From: a virus
Lineage: Duplodnaviria; Heunggongvirae; Uroviricota; Caudoviricetes
Reading direction: 5' to 3' (one strand)
Length of the DNA stretch: 42,847 nucleotides
IMG/VR virus record: IMGVR_UViG_3300045988_015629
A model generated the notes under the pieces. The model worked only from the letters and a program-made list of their open reading frames with translations. It had not been told where the DNA came from and ran no database searches. Within the stretch, counting starts at the first letter, position 1, and each line of letters opens with the position of its first letter. Shown here in pieces: positions 17,954-28,559 of the stretch. A program made the position numbers and the translations under genes.

Positions 17954-18226
17954 ATGATTTACCAACTCTACCGCGCCGTAGACAGGCGGGATAGCACAGA
18001 GGCGCTATGGCTGTTACGTGCGCCGTCTGGCTCGCACCAGATGGAAGATATGGCGTACTTAGGCAAAGTGCCACGGCCTAAAGACATAGGCCGCCACGTG
18101 TCACATATTAAGCGCACGACTTTCGCCAAACCGGACTTTTACGTCTTCGAGTCGATGTATGGCTGGGCTATGCACTGCGACCATAAGACACGACATTTAA
18201 TTGACCAGTGGGAGAGCAGGGTATGA
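17954..18226 (+). CDS. hypothetical protein (90 aa)
   Basis: ORF whose stop overlaps the exonuclease start (ATGA). Confidence 0.45.
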   Translation: MIYQLYRAVDRRDSTEALWLLRAPSGSHQMEDMAYLGKVPRPKDIGRHVSHIKRTTFAKPDFYVFESMYGWAMHCDHKTRHLIDQWESRV

Positions 18227-19473
18227 TTTTAAAGGAACGCGGCGGCAATAACGATGTGCACGCCTTACTGTCGCCGTCTGGCGCTAAAAAGTGGCTGGCG
18301 TGCAGTGCATCACTGGCCTGTGAGAAAGATATTCCCAACACGTCTGGTAAAGCCGCCGTTACAGGGACTGCATGCCACACCATAGCGGAGATGCACCTTA
18401 ACCAGTACATCAAAGGCACTGCTCTGCCATTAGAGCGTGAAGTCGGCGCTTACGTGCTGGATGAAGGTAAAGGCCAGATTAAGGCGCTAATCAGCCCAAT
18501 GAAAGGCGCGGTACTGATTACGGCGGACATGATTGAGCAGGTGCGCAAGTACACCGACTACTGCAAAGCGATTATCGACGTAGCGACTTACGCCAAGCTG
18601 GAAATGCGAGTCAATCTTACTGAGGTATTGCATCCTGGGTATGAAGGTGTCGAGACGTTCGGAACGGCTGACCTCGTTGCTGTCCAGGAACTGGCGAACA
18701 CCGACGAGCACATGCTCATTATTGGCGACCTTAAAACTGGACGGCATCGTGTTGAAGCGAAAGAAAACAAGCAGCTTATGCTTTACGCTCTCGGTGTTTA
18801 TCGCCGACTCAAGAGACGTTATAACATCACAGTAGTGCGCCTGGTCATCTTCCAGCCGTACGCGGGGGGTGCGTCAGAGTGGGACATCTCGGTCGAAGGT
18901 CTGGAACTGTTCGCTAAGTTCGCACAGAAACGGGCACTGTTAGCGCTTGATGCTTATTTCCGTGGAAAGAAGAACCTGAAAGCGTCGGACTTTAAACCGT
19001 CGGTCGATGGTTGCCAGTGGTGCCGGTTCTCTGAACAGTGTGCCGCGCGTACAAAGACGGTTAATTCTGTACTGGCGGAAGAACTTGAAGACGACTTTGT
19101 GCTGGAACTGACGACGGAGCAACTCGTAGTTGAGTATGAGAAGTTGCCGCTGTTGCGCCAGCACATCGACAAGGTTGAGAAAGCGATGTCCGCCGCATTG
19201 CATTCCGGTAAGAAAGTGCCAGGGTACAAACTGGTAGAAGGCCGCCCGGGTAATCGTGCGTGGAAAGATGCCGATGCGATTGAAGTGTCACACGGCGACA
19301 TTCTCAAAAAAGAGGTATTGATGTCCCCTACGGAGGCAGCAAAAGTTCTTTCTGCGGATGAGATGGCAGCGCTTGAGCCGTTTATTACCCGTAAGCCAGG
19401 CGCACCATGTGTCGCAACGGCAGACGACAAACGTCCTGAGTGGAATCAGGTTAGTGAAGAAGATTTGGAATAA
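18223..19473 (+). CDS. PD-(D/E)XK exonuclease with C-terminal cysteine cluster (RecB/Cas4-like)
   Basis: GTADLVAV...IGDLKTG and QLMLYALG motifs plus C...CQWCRF..C; ATG at 18223 with GGAG RBS. Confidence 0.7.
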   Translation: MILKERGGNNDVHALLSPSGAKKWLACSASLACEKDIPNTSGKAAVTGTACHTIAEMHLNQYIKGTALPLEREVGAYVLDEGKGQIKALISPMKGAVLITADMIEQVRKYTDYCKAIIDVATYAKLEMRVNLTEVLHPGYEGVETFGTADLVAVQELANTDEHMLIIGDLKTGRHRVEAKENKQLMLYALGVYRRLKRRYNITVVRLVIFQPYAGGASEWDISVEGLELFAKFAQKRALLALDAYFRGKKNLKASDFKPSVDGCQWCRFSEQCAARTKTVNSVLAEELEDDFVLELTTEQLVVEYEKLPLLRQHIDKVEKAMSAALHSGKKVPGYKLVEGRPGNRAWKDADAIEVSHGDILKKEVLMSPTEAAKVLSADEMAALEPFITRKPGAPCVATADDKRPEWNQVSEEDLE

Positions 19474-22628: not shown

Positions 22629-22916
22629 ATGAGTACGCCTGAGGGGCGCGTGCAGAAATACGCAAAAGAGCGATTCGAGGCCCTGGGAGGCCTCGTACGC
22701 AAATTGTCGTACGAAAATAGAGCGGGCGCCCCCGACCTGCTGGTAATTCTCCCTGGTGGCATCATCTGGTTCGTCGAGGTTAAGAAAGACGAAAACACGA
22801 AGCCGGACCCGCACCAGTTACGAGAGCACGAGCGGATGCGTAAACGTGGTGCAAATGTTTTTGTCGTTGGTTCGTTTAAACAGGTTGACGACCTAATAGC
22901 GGGCTATTATAGTTAA
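22629..22916 (+). CDS. VRR-NUC domain nuclease
   Basis: PDLLVIL...WFVEVKKD PD-(D/E)XK arrangement typical of VRR-NUC; 95 aa. Confidence 0.65.
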   Translation: MSTPEGRVQKYAKERFEALGGLVRKLSYENRAGAPDLLVILPGGIIWFVEVKKDENTKPDPHQLREHERMRKRGANVFVVGSFKQVDDLIAGYYS

Positions 22917-22946: not shown

Positions 22947-23138
22947 ATGAAACACGAATACGACCGCAAACCAGCACGTGACATCGTACCGGGTGACATG
23001 ATTTTCAACGTTAAGACACGTCAACCTGTTGCCGTTGATACGGTGTTCGTCGAGTCGAACGGTAAACTGGTTATCGAAGATGTAACGGGTAACGTTACGG
23101 CGTTCGGGCGTAAAGAGCTGGTGCTGGTGGCGAAATGA
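22947..23138 (+). CDS. hypothetical protein (63 aa)
   Basis: ORF with AAGGAA RBS. Confidence 0.4.
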   Translation: MKHEYDRKPARDIVPGDMIFNVKTRQPVAVDTVFVESNGKLVIEDVTGNVTAFGRKELVLVAK

Positions 23139-23959
23139 ACTATTACAACGAATGGGATAAAGGCGCAGCCGCGTGGCTGCGTGAATTAATAAAACATGGT
23201 CACATACCTTTTGGAGTTGTAGATGAAAGAAGCATTACCGAAGTTAAGCCAGAAGACCTTGACGGGTTCACCCAGTGTCATTTTTTCGCTGGTATCGGCG
23301 GCTGGCCTCTCGCGCTCAGACTTGCGGGAGTTTCGGAGGATACGCCTCTCTGGACGGGAAGCCCGCCTTGCCAACCGTTTAGCACGGCAGGAAAACAACT
23401 CGGACAGTTCGACCCGAGACACCTCGCGCCGGTCTTCCTCGACATCATCAGCGAGTGCCGCCCTCCAGTCATCTTTGGGGAGCAGGTTGCGGCAGCAATT
23501 GCAAAATCGTGGATGTGCGATTTACAAGCTCACCTGGAAGGAGAAGACTACGCCGTCGGGTTTGCTGTTCTCCCAGCTTGTAGCGTCGGCGCACCGCACA
23601 AAAGAGAACGACTCTTCTTTGGCGCGCACGAACTGGCCTACACCGACAGCGAACGACTTCAGAGGGAGCGGAGAGACAGTGATTCGCACGGACGGGAGGG
23701 ACAGAACATTCGACAGGCTGGACTACTCAACAGAGCAGGGATTGAAAGCGAGTCAACCAACCCGCACCACGGCTTCTGGTCAGATGCTGACTGGCTCGGA
23801 TGCCGTGATGGAAAGTTCCGGCCGGTTGAACCCGGCGCATTCCCGCTGGCTAATGGGATACCCGCAAGAGTGGGACGATTGCGCGGTTACGGCAATGCCA
23901 TCGTCCCGCAAGTAGCCGCTGAATTTATAAAGGCATTCATGGGGGCGGTAAATGAGTAA
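23135..23959 (+). CDS. DNA (cytosine-5)-methyltransferase, compact (274 aa)
   Basis: Motif I FFAGIGG, motif [10 protein letters not shown] (catalytic Cys), ENV-like FGEQV, motif [12 protein letters not shown], motif X-like GYGNAIVP. Confidence 0.8.
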
Positions 23960-25376
23960 GTTTCAAAGGCGCGAATACCAGAAGCTCATGACTTCGTTCA
24001 TGCTGCGGCACCATCGCTGTAATATTTGGGCGAGTATGGGTGCCGGGAAGACTGGCAGCGTACTGTGGGTCTTAAACCGACTGTTCCGCAACGGCCAACT
24101 TAATGATGGCGACCGGGTGTTAATTCTGGCTCCTTTACGTGTTGCGTCCGGCACATGGCCGGCAGAGCAAGAGAAATGGAATTTCCCATGTCTGCGTGTC
24201 GTAGACGCGACAGGTTCAGAGAAGCGCCGCATCGCGGCGCTGGAGTCAGATGCTAACGTGGTGTGCACGAACTACGAAGTTATCGAGTGGCTGATCGACT
24301 ACTACGGCAAAGATGACTGGCCTTTTACGGTTATCGTTGCCGATGAGAGCACGAAGCTGAAATCATTCCGCAGCCGTTCAGGTGGTAGCAAGCGGGCAAA
24401 GGCGCTCAGTAAGGTGGCGTTTGGAAAGGTTAAGCGTTTTATAAACCTTACCGGCACGCCCTCACCAAACGGCCTCAAGGACTTGTGGGGTCAGAACTGG
24501 TTTATCGACGCTGGCGAACGCCTAGGTTCTTCGTACACGGCATTCACCGACCGCTGGTTTAACTCGGTACAGAAAGGAAAGTCGGCGATGGCGCGCGAAT
24601 ACCACGCCCGTCCTGGCGCGGATAATGAAATTCACCAGAAGATGAAGGACATCAGCCTCACTATTGACGCCGCTGAGTGGTTCGGGTGTGAAGCGCCGAT
24701 TATTGTTACGGTTGAAATCGACCTGCCGAAGAAAGCACGTCAGGCGTACATCGATATGGAGGAGAAGTTATTCGCGGAACTTGAGAGCGGGGAAGTGGAA
24801 GCTGCTAACGCTGCGGCGAAGACGTCGAAGTGCTTGCAAATTGCGTCCGGTGCCGTATATGTATCGGGGCCAGACGGCGAAGCAACCAAAGACTGGGAGA
24901 AAGTACACGACACGAAACTGGACGCGCTGGAGTCCATTGCCGAGGAGTTGCAGGGTGCGCCGTTACTAGTCGCCTATCAGTTCAAGCACGAACTGGAGCG
25001 CATCCTCAAGCGCTTCCCGCAGGCGCAGGCTTTTGCAAAAGGCGCGAAGGGCAATAAGCAGATGGAAGCGTGGAACCGTGGCGAAATCGAAATCCTATGC
25101 GTGCACCCCGCGTCAGCCGGCCATGGTTTGAATTTACAGGACGGCGGACATCATCTGGCGTTCATCTCGCAAGGCTGGAACCTTGAACACTATTTGCAGG
25201 TTGTCGAGCGTATAGGCCCTGTCCGCCAGAAACAGGCAGGTCATGAGCGCCCGGTGTTCCTCTATCACATCGTTGCAAAAGACACGCTGGACGAGGTTGT
25301 TGCCGCGCGTACTGACGAGAAGAAATCCGTCCAGGAAGAGTTGCTTAACTACATGAAGAGACGAGGTAAGAAATGA
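23952..25376 (+). CDS. SNF2-family DNA helicase
   Basis: N-terminal GAGKTG, DExx-like VIVADEST, LTGTPSPNGLKDLW and a C-terminal helicase domain. Confidence 0.8.
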   Translation: MSKFQRREYQKLMTSFMLRHHRCNIWASMGAGKTGSVLWVLNRLFRNGQLNDGDRVLILAPLRVASGTWPAEQEKWNFPCLRVVDATGSEKRRIAALESDANVVCTNYEVIEWLIDYYGKDDWPFTVIVADESTKLKSFRSRSGGSKRAKALSKVAFGKVKRFINLTGTPSPNGLKDLWGQNWFIDAGERLGSSYTAFTDRWFNSVQKGKSAMAREYHARPGADNEIHQKMKDISLTIDAAEWFGCEAPIIVTVEIDLPKKARQAYIDMEEKLFAELESGEVEAANAAAKTSKCLQIASGAVYVSGPDGEATKDWEKVHDTKLDALESIAEELQGAPLLVAYQFKHELERILKRFPQAQAFAKGAKGNKQMEAWNRGEIEILCVHPASAGHGLNLQDGGHHLAFISQGWNLEHYLQVVERIGPVRQKQAGHERPVFLYHIVAKDTLDEVVAARTDEKKSVQEELLNYMKRRGKK

Positions 25377-25576: not shown

Positions 25577-25608
25577 AGAAAAGGCCCCGTTTGGGGCCTT
25601 AGTTTTAT
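25576..25608. terminator. bidirectional rho-independent terminator at the replication/tailspike convergence
   Basis: GGCCCCGTTTGGGGCC hairpin flanked by AGAAAA and TTAGTTTTA. Confidence 0.75.
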
Positions 25609-28559
25609 TTATCTTCTAGTGCTGCCAGCCTCTTCTCGAACTCGCGCATCTTCTTACGCTGATAGGCAATCTCTATGAAGAACATCTGGTCCGCCCTAAC
25701 CCCCCATCTGCCGCCGGGAGGGGATACTTGTACAGTCTGACCATCTTCATCAATATCATACGTAGCTTCAATTGAGTCGTAGCACAAGAAAGCATATTTA
25801 CAGTATGTAGAACCCTCCTCCATAAGCCCATGGTTGACCAAGATGTCTCGCACATCTTGGGCTATCACACCGAAGTGTATCCTTGCAGTGTCACCCTTGA
25901 TTGCTAGGCTTTCAAGCCACTTAAAAGATATTACATGTATATCCTCCCATGCGGTAAGGAGTTGTCCCTCAATTTCCTCTTTGTTCGTCTTAAGTGTACC
26001 ATCAGACGTGTTTATCGTACCGGTGGTCGCGTACACCGTAGTCCACCTATTACCTGCCGAACCTAAAGACACTTGCGAGTCTAAGTAAGGAAGGAAATTG
26101 TTGTATGAGTAGAAGCCTCCTGACGCATACATAATAGCCCTGTTAGGCCTTGCATGGTTTGCCCCGTACAGTTGCAGCAACGCACCATCGGAACTGGATG
26201 CACCATCACCACCGCTAACTATCAGTCTTTGACCCGATGGGGTTTTAGTGGGGACTGTTTTTGAAATCAGCCCGTAATCACCATCAAACCGTGCACGCAC
26301 GGCAGACTGTTGTGTGCCATCATATTCCAGACCAGTTACATGCAGGGAGTACACGCTTACATCATTGTCAAACGTTAAAGGTGCTTCTACATGGCGTACA
26401 CCATCTACCCCCATGGCGACAGGTATTGTACGGTTAGGAGTTGCTCCGTATTTGAAATCACGTGATACATACGGGTGGTCTTCAATCTTTATCCGGTAGC
26501 TATATAAGTCAGCCGGGTGCCCATCATGTTTGTACCATAACTTCGCACTGTTATCCCCGATGCTCCAGGGAGAGAAGAAGTCTTCCCCTCCAAAGATATA
26601 GTACAACCAGCCATCTTTAACACAGACAGAGCCGACGCCGACGGCAGTGTTAACGATATGGCCCTGGTATATTTGGTCGGTAATATTAAACCACTGAACA
26701 TCATCTAAAGATGAAGGCCAGGACGACACATTGACTTTGCACATAAAGGTCCTCGGATACGAACCTTCATAGCGGCTGCCCGGCTCGCCACCTTCCCACT
26801 CACCAAATGCACGTTCTGTACCAAAGATGTAGAGATAGTCACCTACTTTAGCGAACGGAAGATTGGAGTGATGTACATTGTTCGGGAATCGCAAGTAGCT
26901 CCAGTTTTGCCCAGAATCGGTGCTCATCGCCAGTGTAGAGCCGGGGGAAGTAGGTAATGTGCCGCGTGTGGTAAGGTAGAGCACACCGCCATAACTTTTC
27001 ACACACGGCTCAGAAGCGTTATCAGCGTATGCCTGAGCGACAGTGCGACGAACGAATACGCCTGGATTGTCATACACGTTACTAAAATACAAGACACCGA
27101 GACGCCGAGGGGACACATCGCCGTTGTGATAGCCGACAGCGATAGTGTAGTTAGCATCATCTATAACCGCAAAACTATGTGTCTCCGTGACACACAAATC
27201 AGCGTTAGTGGAGTATGCCACCCCCGGCAATTCGGTAATTTCCCATGGGCTGTCCCAGAATAGCGTTGCGAAGTTCCAGGTAACCCCCGCATTGTTTATG
27301 GTGGAGCCCGCAGGGCTTGAGAGCGTAACAGTGAACGTATTTCGGTTAATTATAGACGCAACCGTCATATTACCCGATACGCCAGTTGCCGATGTATTAG
27401 AGAAGTTAACCGCATCTCCTGCTTTTAGGCCATGATTTTCTATGACAATGGTAGCAGTAGTGGAGCCAGAACTAATAGTTATTCCGCCGGTTGGGTGTCT
27501 AAAATACGGCATTGGGCGTGACCAAAGTTCTGCCTTCTTCATCCGCATATTAGATAAGTAGCGGGTTTCTATAACTGCATATAATCGGTTGCCGCACGTA
27601 CCCATGCTCATGCAGTGGTAGTTAACTCTGTCCGTAGAAACACTAGCATTATAGTCAGCATGGATTGGAGTCAACCACTCAGGCATTGACCAAGTCTGCC
27701 CGTCGTCTCCAGAGCGAACCCAAGCTACATGTAAGTTTTGAACACCATGTCGTTCGCCCGCCATAAACGGGGCGTAAATAACATGGTCGTAGACGAAAGT
27801 TTTATCCTGCGTCCATGCGTTGTAGAACGGGGTATCCGTCACCTTAGTTAGTGAGCCGTTAAAGAAGCCATCAGCTACATAAGTAAGCGGTTGCCCGGCT
27901 ACGCGCTCGTAAACGAATGCAGCATTCTTAAATTTACTAATGTCAGGTAATTGGGAAACTTTATAAGTCAAACCCCTGCCGTCTATAATCCAATTGTTGG
28001 GGGAAGCTGCTAATACATTAAAAATAGATTGAGTATCATCAGTTACGCCGTCGCCCACGGCGCCCCATGCGCGCGGGTCGTATTCGTCCTTCCATCGCGC
28101 CACATGTAAATCTGGGTACAGAATTGCACCGTTTACATCAGATATTTGCTGCCGCAGTATGACCGACCCGACAGGCTGCCACGCCCCATCTGCCACGCCA
28201 CCGGTGGACTGCGGAGAAGATGACGCCGGGATAATTTTTGGTAGAGCACCCAACCAATAGTACCAATCCCCGTCACCGCCAGAGGACGACGGCCACAAAA
28301 CTGCGGTGTTTCGGTCGTTAGCGGATAGTGTACCGCCTGACGTGAAATCAAAATCTGCCAGTTTAAAACCAGCATCACGCAACACGGCAGGTAACGTCTT
28401 CTGGGTCTGTCCAGTAACCTGATTTGTCGCGTAATCAATATCGGCACCACCGGCGACACCGCCGGATTTGCCAGTGGTAACCTCGGCCTCGAAAATCTGA
28501 TGTTTCTTGGCGGTTTGTAAATCCGCCAGGCTTAAAACGTCACCGCATCCGCTTGACAT
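25605..28559 (-). CDS. tailspike / tail fibre protein with C-terminal intramolecular chaperone (peptidase S74-like) domain
   Basis: 984 aa; C-terminal ...SLGSAGNRWTTVYATTGTINTSDGTLKTNKEEIEG... resembles the autoproteolytic chaperone domain of endosialidase-type tailspikes; RBS AAAGAGGA. Confidence 0.75.
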   Translation of the reverse strand: MSSGCGDVLSLADLQTAKKHQIFEAEVTTGKSGGVAGGADIDYATNQVTGQTQKTLPAVLRDAGFKLADFDFTSGGTLSANDRNTAVLWPSSSGGDGDWYYWLGALPKIIPASSSPQSTGGVADGAWQPVGSVILRQQISDVNGAILYPDLHVARWKDEYDPRAWGAVGDGVTDDTQSIFNVLAASPNNWIIDGRGLTYKVSQLPDISKFKNAAFVYERVAGQPLTYVADGFFNGSLTKVTDTPFYNAWTQDKTFVYDHVIYAPFMAGERHGVQNLHVAWVRSGDDGQTWSMPEWLTPIHADYNASVSTDRVNYHCMSMGTCGNRLYAVIETRYLSNMRMKKAELWSRPMPYFRHPTGGITISSGSTTATIVIENHGLKAGDAVNFSNTSATGVSGNMTVASIINRNTFTVTLSSPAGSTINNAGVTWNFATLFWDSPWEITELPGVAYSTNADLCVTETHSFAVIDDANYTIAVGYHNGDVSPRRLGVLYFSNVYDNPGVFVRRTVAQAYADNASEPCVKSYGGVLYLTTRGTLPTSPGSTLAMSTDSGQNWSYLRFPNNVHHSNLPFAKVGDYLYIFGTERAFGEWEGGEPGSRYEGSYPRTFMCKVNVSSWPSSLDDVQWFNITDQIYQGHIVNTAVGVGSVCVKDGWLYYIFGGEDFFSPWSIGDNSAKLWYKHDGHPADLYSYRIKIEDHPYVSRDFKYGATPNRTIPVAMGVDGVRHVEAPLTFDNDVSVYSLHVTGLEYDGTQQSAVRARFDGDYGLISKTVPTKTPSGQRLIVSGGDGASSSDGALLQLYGANHARPNRAIMYASGGFYSYNNFLPYLDSQVSLGSAGNRWTTVYATTGTINTSDGTLKTNKEEIEGQLLTAWEDIHVISFKWLESLAIKGDTARIHFGVIAQDVRDILVNHGLMEEGSTYCKYAFLCYDSIEATYDIDEDGQTVQVSPPGGRWGVRADQMFFIEIAYQRKKMREFEKRLAALEDK

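Follow-up and report, generated by a model that had tools for sequence, protein, structure and literature searches.

A probable two-polypeptide orphan C5-cytosine methyltransferase encoded in two overlapping frames of a Kagunavirus replication block

The precedent for a C5-cytosine methyltransferase made of two polypeptides, M.EcoHK31I, reportedly dates from 1995. C5 methyltransferases consist of a large domain, holding motifs I to VIII plus X, and of a small domain, comprising the variable region and motif IX, which makes the base-specific contacts (PMC3404938). According to published summaries, the beta polypeptide of M.EcoHK31I is encoded wholly inside the alpha gene in another frame, alpha carries motifs I to VIII and X, beta carries motif IX, and both are required, with the first 42 residues of beta being dispensable (PMC2836561, PMC3404938). 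The account given in the review counts only two known natural two-polypeptide C5 methyltransferases (PMC3404938). We analysed a comparable arrangement in IMG/VR virus record IMGVR_UViG_3300045988_015629, a 42,847-nucleotide stretch of DNA hereafter called the window, which belongs to a Kagunavirus (Guernseyvirinae), a K1G/K1H-like Escherichia coli K1 siphophage. The window encodes a 274-residue open reading frame (ORF), alpha, with the catalytic domain of a C5 methyltransferase and, wholly inside it in the +1 frame, a 230-residue ORF, beta (Table 1). Both frames are present and kept open, purifying selection acts on them in alternating segments, and the arrangement is family-wide. We read the locus as a two-polypeptide, heterodimeric orphan C5-cytosine methyltransferase of the M.EcoHK31I type, and put the probability of this reading at roughly three in four.

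The nested frame is open well beyond chance. The longest +1 open run within alpha spans 230 codons. Shuffling alpha synonymously 5000 times gave longest runs that averaged 93 codons (P = 2e-4), and when codons were drawn from the window's own usage the mean longest run was 77 and none of 5000 draws reached 230. Beta matched 3,447 proteins in a collection clustered at 90% and, at 50% identity, 10,060 cluster representatives. Through alpha we recovered 80 diverse viral loci, with alpha identities of 45-80% and GC contents of 50-71%. Of these, 79 keep the +1 frame open across 70% or more of alpha; the median open share is 89%, versus 19% for the +2 frame, and 73 loci show a motif-IX-like pattern. 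On average these loci contain 0.47 +1-frame stops each versus 4.28 expected, and the +2 frame shows no such depletion (12.6 observed versus 11.1 expected). As an independent replicate we recovered 70 bacterial loci through beta, mostly proteobacterial and presumably prophage. In 66 of these 70, motif IX lies inside an ORF of the alpha frame that carries motifs IV and X, and a single-frame version, with both parts in one frame, occurs in none. Alpha is longer than beta by exactly 44 residues in the window, as it is in 11 of the 12 measured Guernseyvirinae-like relatives, and every indel is a multiple of three.

We then compared the ratio of nonsynonymous to synonymous substitution rates (dN/dS) in frame A (alpha) and frame B (beta) by the Nei-Gojobori method, using nine Guernseyvirinae-like sequences (the window and eight relatives). 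Constraint lies on frame A at the beginning of the overlap, bears on both frames at 23496-23618, passes to frame B after motif VIII, returns to frame A, and bears on both frames shortly before motif X (Table 1). Codon-position entropy across 80 distant loci shows the same frame switches, with 3-base periodicity lost at ~23495-23585 and 23825-23885, as is expected where both frames are constrained. The depletion of stops and the purifying selection seen in both frames exceed what either frame would impose on the other, and the locus is a case of same-strand dual coding.

These results bear directly on the original prediction for this gene, which was made from one frame and described a compact enzyme with a very short target-recognition region and about 75 residues between motifs VIII and X, possibly of relaxed or short-site specificity. 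The actual gap is 90 residues. Among relatives, alpha residues 165-211, which fill the first part of it, are hypervariable, with much arginine, glutamate and glycine; they are unconstrained and predicted to be disordered, and are therefore a linker rather than a recognition domain, while the +1 frame is conserved over the same DNA. The recognition region had seemed very short because only one frame had been read, the 230-residue +1-frame ORF at 23223..23915 having been overlooked. That alpha alone is a whole methyltransferase, compact and minimal in its recognition region, with the nested ORF irrelevant, would agree with the presence of motifs I, IV, VI, VIII and X and with the Pfam threshold having been passed. 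We nevertheless consider it very improbable, as alpha has no motif IX, its VIII-X stretch is unconstrained and predicted to be disordered, the nested frame is kept open and under purifying selection across ~150 loci, and the alpha polypeptide of M.EcoHK31I is described in published summary as inactive by itself (PMC2836561).

Alpha nonetheless retains its catalytic core intact, and in this respect the original prediction of a C5-cytosine methyltransferase holds: the 274-residue ORF is present, with motifs I, IV, VI, VIII and X at the places where they had been noted. PF00145 matches alpha with 64.6 bits against a cut-off of 22, the match being limited to residues 73-168 (profile positions 65-164 of 324), and C79, E116, R157, R159, G253 and N254, the catalytic residues among them, are invariant across 99 alpha homologues. 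AlphaFold2 (AF2) models residues 1-170 with a predicted local distance difference test (pLDDT) score of ~90 and the motif X helix with 93, and residues 173-254 with low confidence. Foldseek matched this model to M.HhaI and M.HaeIII over the large domain only (~168 columns, E 2e-8), and hhalign aligned alpha 39-168 with HhaI 6-171 at 98% probability. No motif IX was found in the 274-residue alpha protein, so that alpha does not carry motif IX together with a variable recognition region between VIII and X in the same chain. Alpha also departs from the canonical order I-II-III-IV: hhalign leaves a gap of ~35 residues in alpha at HhaI motifs II-III (HhaI residues 35-73), the YYNEWDK sequence at alpha residues 3-9 aligns with HhaI 37-47, and AF2 places a strand (residues 2-5), a helix (9-20) and a second strand (27-30), at pLDDT ~90, ahead of the motif I strand. 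Judged from the alignment and the model, the half of alpha that binds S-adenosylmethionine (AdoMet), residues 1-56, appears to be permuted family-wide.

Between the linker and motif X lies a conserved stretch of alpha, residues 212-250, the second half of which is constrained in the beta frame too. This stretch is the basis of a variant of the two-subunit arrangement, in which it would serve as a short recognition element, beta would contribute only a binding-stabilising motif IX, and the WPTP repeats of beta, described below, would be accessory and would not determine specificity. Residues 212-231 are strongly purified in frame A (dN/dS 0.10), with six invariant positions (W215, D219, W220, C223, D225 and R229), and for M.EcoHK31I, too, published summaries assign the predicted recognition domain to alpha (PMC2836561, PMC3404938). 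However, residues 212-250 are near-invariant across a family whose beta cassettes range from 1 to 7 and differ in sequence, and they therefore cannot account for differing specificities. Where C5 methyltransferase structures have been solved, every base-specific contact is made by the small domain, which holds the variable region and motif IX (PMC3404938), and AF2 confidence is low over alpha 212-254. We regard this variant as unlikely and favour the reading in which residues 212-250 are a candidate docking or hinge element for beta.

At the DNA level, the dual-coded stretch 23769-23902 retains ~80% identity even in Burkholderia, Rhodobacter, Pseudomonas, Edwardsiella and Ralstonia phages. It also matches an alga-associated record, Dunaliella viridis virus SI2, the gene being otherwise one of phages and prophages. 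One alpha relative, P0197 (479 residues), carries an insertion of ~190 residues after FRPVE, inside the region that encodes the beta motif IX in the other frame.

We next consider how beta is started. In the window, its ATG is preceded by a Shine-Dalgarno-like GGAG and by a TAG that closes the +1 frame, and in many relatives the alpha codons for a conserved DERSIxDV yield GGAG and, after a gap of 7 nt, a beta-frame ATG. Over the leader region of beta, which is low in complexity and unconstrained at the amino-acid level, beta-frame stops number 7 in total over 79 loci, against 1.37 expected per locus, and the log10 values of the per-locus zero-stop probabilities sum to -58. This stop-free upstream frame agrees with independent initiation near alpha codons 30-40. 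Constraint of beta's own begins near residues 76-89, where, of 79 loci, 71 encode alpha Val118 of motif VI (23486-23488) by GTT, the other 8 by GTC, and none by GTG or GTA, compared to 27% GTT at other valines. The use of GTT at Val118 fixes Leu89 (TTG) in beta. In the window, a GGGGAG before this TTG is a putative Shine-Dalgarno sequence, and Leu89 is a possible alternative start for a beta of 142 residues.

Downstream of the leader, beta contains three candidate elements: a predicted helix and beta-hairpin, a single WPTP cassette, and a motif-IX-like element (Table 1). AF2 scores three of the five 10-residue blocks within residues 76-125 at pLDDT 83-88 and the other two at 65-70, and a 17-residue stretch downstream of the cassettes is almost invariant among relatives. 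The window beta has one WPTP cassette, and the cassettes of its relatives vary in sequence as well as in number: of 317 beta proteins, 54 have one, 153 two, 75 three, 26 four, three five and one seven, with none detected in five. Single-linkage clustering joined the cassettes in one cluster of 407 members and did not separate cassette types, showing that they are homologous repeats. Close Kagunaviruses (L085, L093, L004 and L084) differ from the window by whole WPTP cassettes inserted or replaced relative to 23620-23760, and Kagunavirus beta proteins are 220, 230, 265 or 270 residues long with flanks at least 90% identical, suggesting that cassettes may be exchanged among these phages by recombination.

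The assignment of motif IX to beta comes from profile alignments with M.HhaI, whose sequence we checked against PDB chains. The only match of the beta profile is beta 200-219 with HhaI 272-291, which is motif IX, at E 0.14 (5 of 300 shuffled targets scored as high), and when beta motif IX and alpha motif X are placed in genomic order they align collinearly with HhaI 269-311 at E 0.015 (2 of 300 shuffles), each result giving modest support. HMMER searches of PDB sequences with the beta profile and with a profile of the motif IX and X chimera gave no matches; Pfam searches with a chimera of alpha 1-168, beta 133-220 and alpha 251-274, and with C-terminal fragments, did not extend PF00145 into motifs IX-X; and beta alone folds poorly in AF2, its structure search ending without a match.

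No Pfam or NCBIfam model matches beta, and this, together with the absence of a structural match and the fusion of beta in some relatives to a downstream nuclease-like or Dam-like domain, would suit a beta that is a real protein unrelated to methylation, such as a DNA-binding or regulatory protein overprinted on the gene. We find this scarcely credible, since beta was never found without alpha among loci seeded from beta, the motif-IX-like element sits where it would be expected with respect to alpha motif X, and M.EcoHK31I offers a precedent. In the relatives concerned, the beta frame continues into a domain resembling the PD-(D/E)XK nuclease encoded at 18208..19473 of the window (P0258, 758 residues) or into one resembling a Dam-type N6-adenine methyltransferase (P0263, 497 residues); these extensions could be real fusions or gene-calling artefacts.

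The genomic order of motif VIII in frame A, WPTP and motif IX in frame B, and motif X in frame A is collinear with that of one-chain enzymes, and this order would also be produced if a single polypeptide were made by programmed frameshifting, with ribosomes leaving the alpha frame for the beta frame after motif VIII and returning to it ahead of motif X. Such a product would require a +1 and then a -1 shift, yet neither junction in the window shows a slippery or homopolymer site, and the sequence following motif VIII varies among relatives. Alpha residues 212-231, which would fall within the supposed frame-B stretch, are selected in frame A (dN/dS 0.10), and frameshifting offers no reason for the beta frame to be open ~400 nt upstream of the shift point. 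We consider a frameshift product extremely improbable, and rejected it on the lack of slippery sites, the frame-A selection at 23754-23822 and the upstream openness of beta.

Under the two-polypeptide reading, alpha would be a complete large domain, binding AdoMet and performing catalysis through motifs I-VIII. After motif VIII, a floppy, unconstrained linker would take the place of the excursion into the small domain, and would be followed by the conserved alpha segment and then by the motif X helix, which would lead back to the AdoMet pocket. Beta would be translated in the +1 frame from its own ribosome-binding site, ~90 nt into alpha. Its first ~75 residues would be a dispensable leader, and its helix-hairpin, one variable WPTP cassette and motif IX would correspond to the DNA-recognising small domain of ordinary C5 methyltransferases. 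By analogy with those enzymes, the split between alpha and beta would fall exactly at the boundary of the large and small domains. We infer that the two polypeptides form a heterodimer, assembling in trans into an active enzyme in which beta is likely the specificity and motif IX subunit and its cassettes act in specificity. The assembled enzyme would methylate the replicating DNA of the phage, and this methylation likely protects the phage from host restriction.

Table 1. Features of the methyltransferase locus and its neighbours, in window coordinates, with dN/dS for frame A (alpha) and frame B (beta).
Feature	Position	Strand	dN/dS frame A	dN/dS frame B	Remarks
VRR-NUC gene	22629..22916	+			
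63-aa ORF	22947..23138	+			between VRR-NUC gene and methyltransferase
Alpha ORF, 274 aa	23135..23959	+			large catalytic domain of C5-cytosine methyltransferase
Motif II-like YYNEWDK and motif III-like GVVD	23135..23248	+			alpha aa 1-38, ahead of motif I; E6 and D30 invariant
GGAG, Shine-Dalgarno-like	23213..23216	+			6 nt before beta ATG at 23223
TAG closing +1 frame	23220..23222	+			immediately before beta ATG
Beta ORF, 230 aa	23223..23915	+			+1 frame, wholly inside alpha; proposed small subunit (variable cassette and motif IX)
Beta leader	23223..23447	+			beta aa 1-75; off-frame read of alpha motifs I-V; no own amino-acid constraint; stop-free frame; pLDDT ~50
Segment	23226..23495		0.18	1.57	
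Motif I FFAGIGG	23282..23302	+			alpha aa 50-56; AdoMet binding
Motif IV PPCQPFS	23363..23383	+			alpha aa 77-83; catalytic Cys79
Predicted helix and beta-hairpin of beta	23448..23597	+			beta aa 76-125; overlaps alpha motifs VI-VIII; both frames constrained
Motif VI FGEQV	23474..23488	+			alpha aa 114-118
Segment	23496..23618		0.41	0.64	
Motif VIII (HKRER)	23588..23620	+			alpha aa 152-162
Unconstrained linker, predicted disordered	23627..23767	+			alpha aa 165-211; pLDDT 30-49; dN/dS 1.36 over 23631-23753
Segment	23631..23753		1.36	0.24	
Single WPTP cassette	23634..23747	+			beta aa 138-175; dN/dS 0.24 over 23631-23753
Segment	23754..23822		0.10	0.68	
Conserved segment, candidate docking/hinge element for beta	23768..23884	+	0.10, then 0.34		alpha aa 212-250; low AF2 confidence
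Motif-IX-like element	23820..23882	+		0.22	beta aa 200-220
Segment	23823..23882		0.34	0.22	
Segment (motif X)	23883..23912		substitutions confined to third positions	not informative	
Motif X GNAIVPQV (aa 253-260), confident helix	23885..23944	+			alpha aa 251-270; pLDDT 93
SNF2 helicase gene	23952..25376	+			overlaps alpha 3' end

The 2.8 kb surrounding the methyltransferase gene are 90-97% identical to many K1G/K1H-like phages, and the gene alone is 99% identical to that of phage ULINTec2, in whose genome no restriction endonuclease is annotated anywhere, in keeping with the earlier claim that no cognate endonuclease adjoins it. The methyltransferase is thus an orphan in the replication gene block, which reads on the plus strand in the order PD-(D/E)XK nuclease, DNA polymerase, VRR-NUC, 63-residue ORF, methyltransferase and SNF2 helicase. 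The original prediction correctly placed the gene in this block, between VRR-NUC and the helicase, but the 63-residue ORF separates it from the VRR-NUC gene. The alpha start overlaps the stop of this small ORF in an ATGA (23135-23138), and the helicase gene begins, with its ATG at 23952, within the last 8 nt of alpha (23952-23959); both overlaps agree with translational coupling along the operon. On the minus strand, at 25605-28559, the window encodes a 984-residue tailspike that is annotated in relatives as an endo-N-acetylneuraminidase (endosialidase), an annotation that would mark the phage as K1-capsule-specific.

Database records treat the two frames unevenly. Beta is a "putative Mte8-like protein" in the GenBank records of K1G, K1ind3 and fTaEco01 and a second "DNA methyltransferase" in the RefSeq record of K1G, while in NTEC3 (L087), VLCpiM12a (L088) and VIPECOMC04 (L093) only beta is annotated, as "methyltransferase". 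Most records annotate alpha alone, few list both, and in plasmid records (PLSDB gene table) only alpha is listed beneath the beta match. PHROGs splits the frames, with phrog_363 holding alpha and phrog_1008 and phrog_31772 holding beta. In the literature, the "Mte8-like" label was found only in a gene listing, and our searches turned up no account of nesting as a trait that phage methyltransferases share family-wide. The architecture is one already known, if rare, and both ORFs are already present in some phage records, so that this is not a new kind of enzyme.

Reading alpha alone has practical consequences, as the enzyme is then wrongly seen as nearly devoid of a recognition domain, and expression of alpha alone would probably yield an inactive protein. 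By analogy with M.EcoHK31I, our data suggest that phages may widely rely on a design of the EcoHK31I type. The 693-nt same-strand overlap is unusually long and deeply conserved, and its alternating constraint makes it a clean natural model for two proteins encoded on one stretch of DNA. More tentatively, the nesting of beta in alpha may be obligatory throughout a very large clade of orphan C5 methyltransferases from phages and prophages in which the whole small domain and the specificity cassettes reside in beta, an extension that we hold possible but to which we give less than an even chance. If it is correct, specificity in beta would contradict the description of M.EcoHK31I with its recognition domain in alpha, and the alpha segment read from the same DNA would serve as a read-through linker left deliberately unconstrained. 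As the frames alternate in constraint, cassettes could then be swapped, duplicated (1-7) or lost with the catalytic subunit unharmed, and phages would gain a plug-in mono- or multi-specific protective methylase.

Among known systems, the orphan multispecific C5 enzymes of Bacillus phages SPR and phi3T and their relatives carry, between motifs VIII and IX, several variable modules in tandem. These modules resemble the 1-7 tandem WPTP cassettes of beta relatives, although the SPR/phi3T-type enzymes are single polypeptides and the window beta carries only one cassette, as a putative recognition unit. M.HhaI and M.HaeIII share the catalytic large-domain fold with alpha, but each is one chain in one frame, with motifs in the order I-II-III-IV and a contiguous small domain. 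The two genes of M.AquI are adjacent and not known to be nested, whereas beta here is fully nested out of frame. M.AquI (CYCGRG) is a C5 methyltransferase that, like the enzyme proposed here, is split by nature into subunits which have to associate, and in the review's summary its split lies within the variable region, with motifs I-VIII in alpha and the remainder of that region, IX and X in beta (PMC3404938); here, motif X stays in alpha. The closest counterpart is M.EcoHK31I (E. coli, YGGCCR), which by its published description likewise has beta nested in the alpha gene in another frame and an alpha with motifs I-VIII plus X but lacking IX. The N-terminus of beta is dispensable in M.EcoHK31I over 42 residues and unconstrained here over ~75. 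In contrast to M.EcoHK31I, which belongs to a restriction-modification system, the present enzyme is an orphan in the replication block of a lytic phage; its beta is nearly as long as alpha (230 versus 274 residues), and its alpha has motifs II-III before motif I. The variable region lies in beta here, as indicated by the selection analysis, whereas in the summarised literature the recognition domain predicted for M.EcoHK31I is assigned to alpha.

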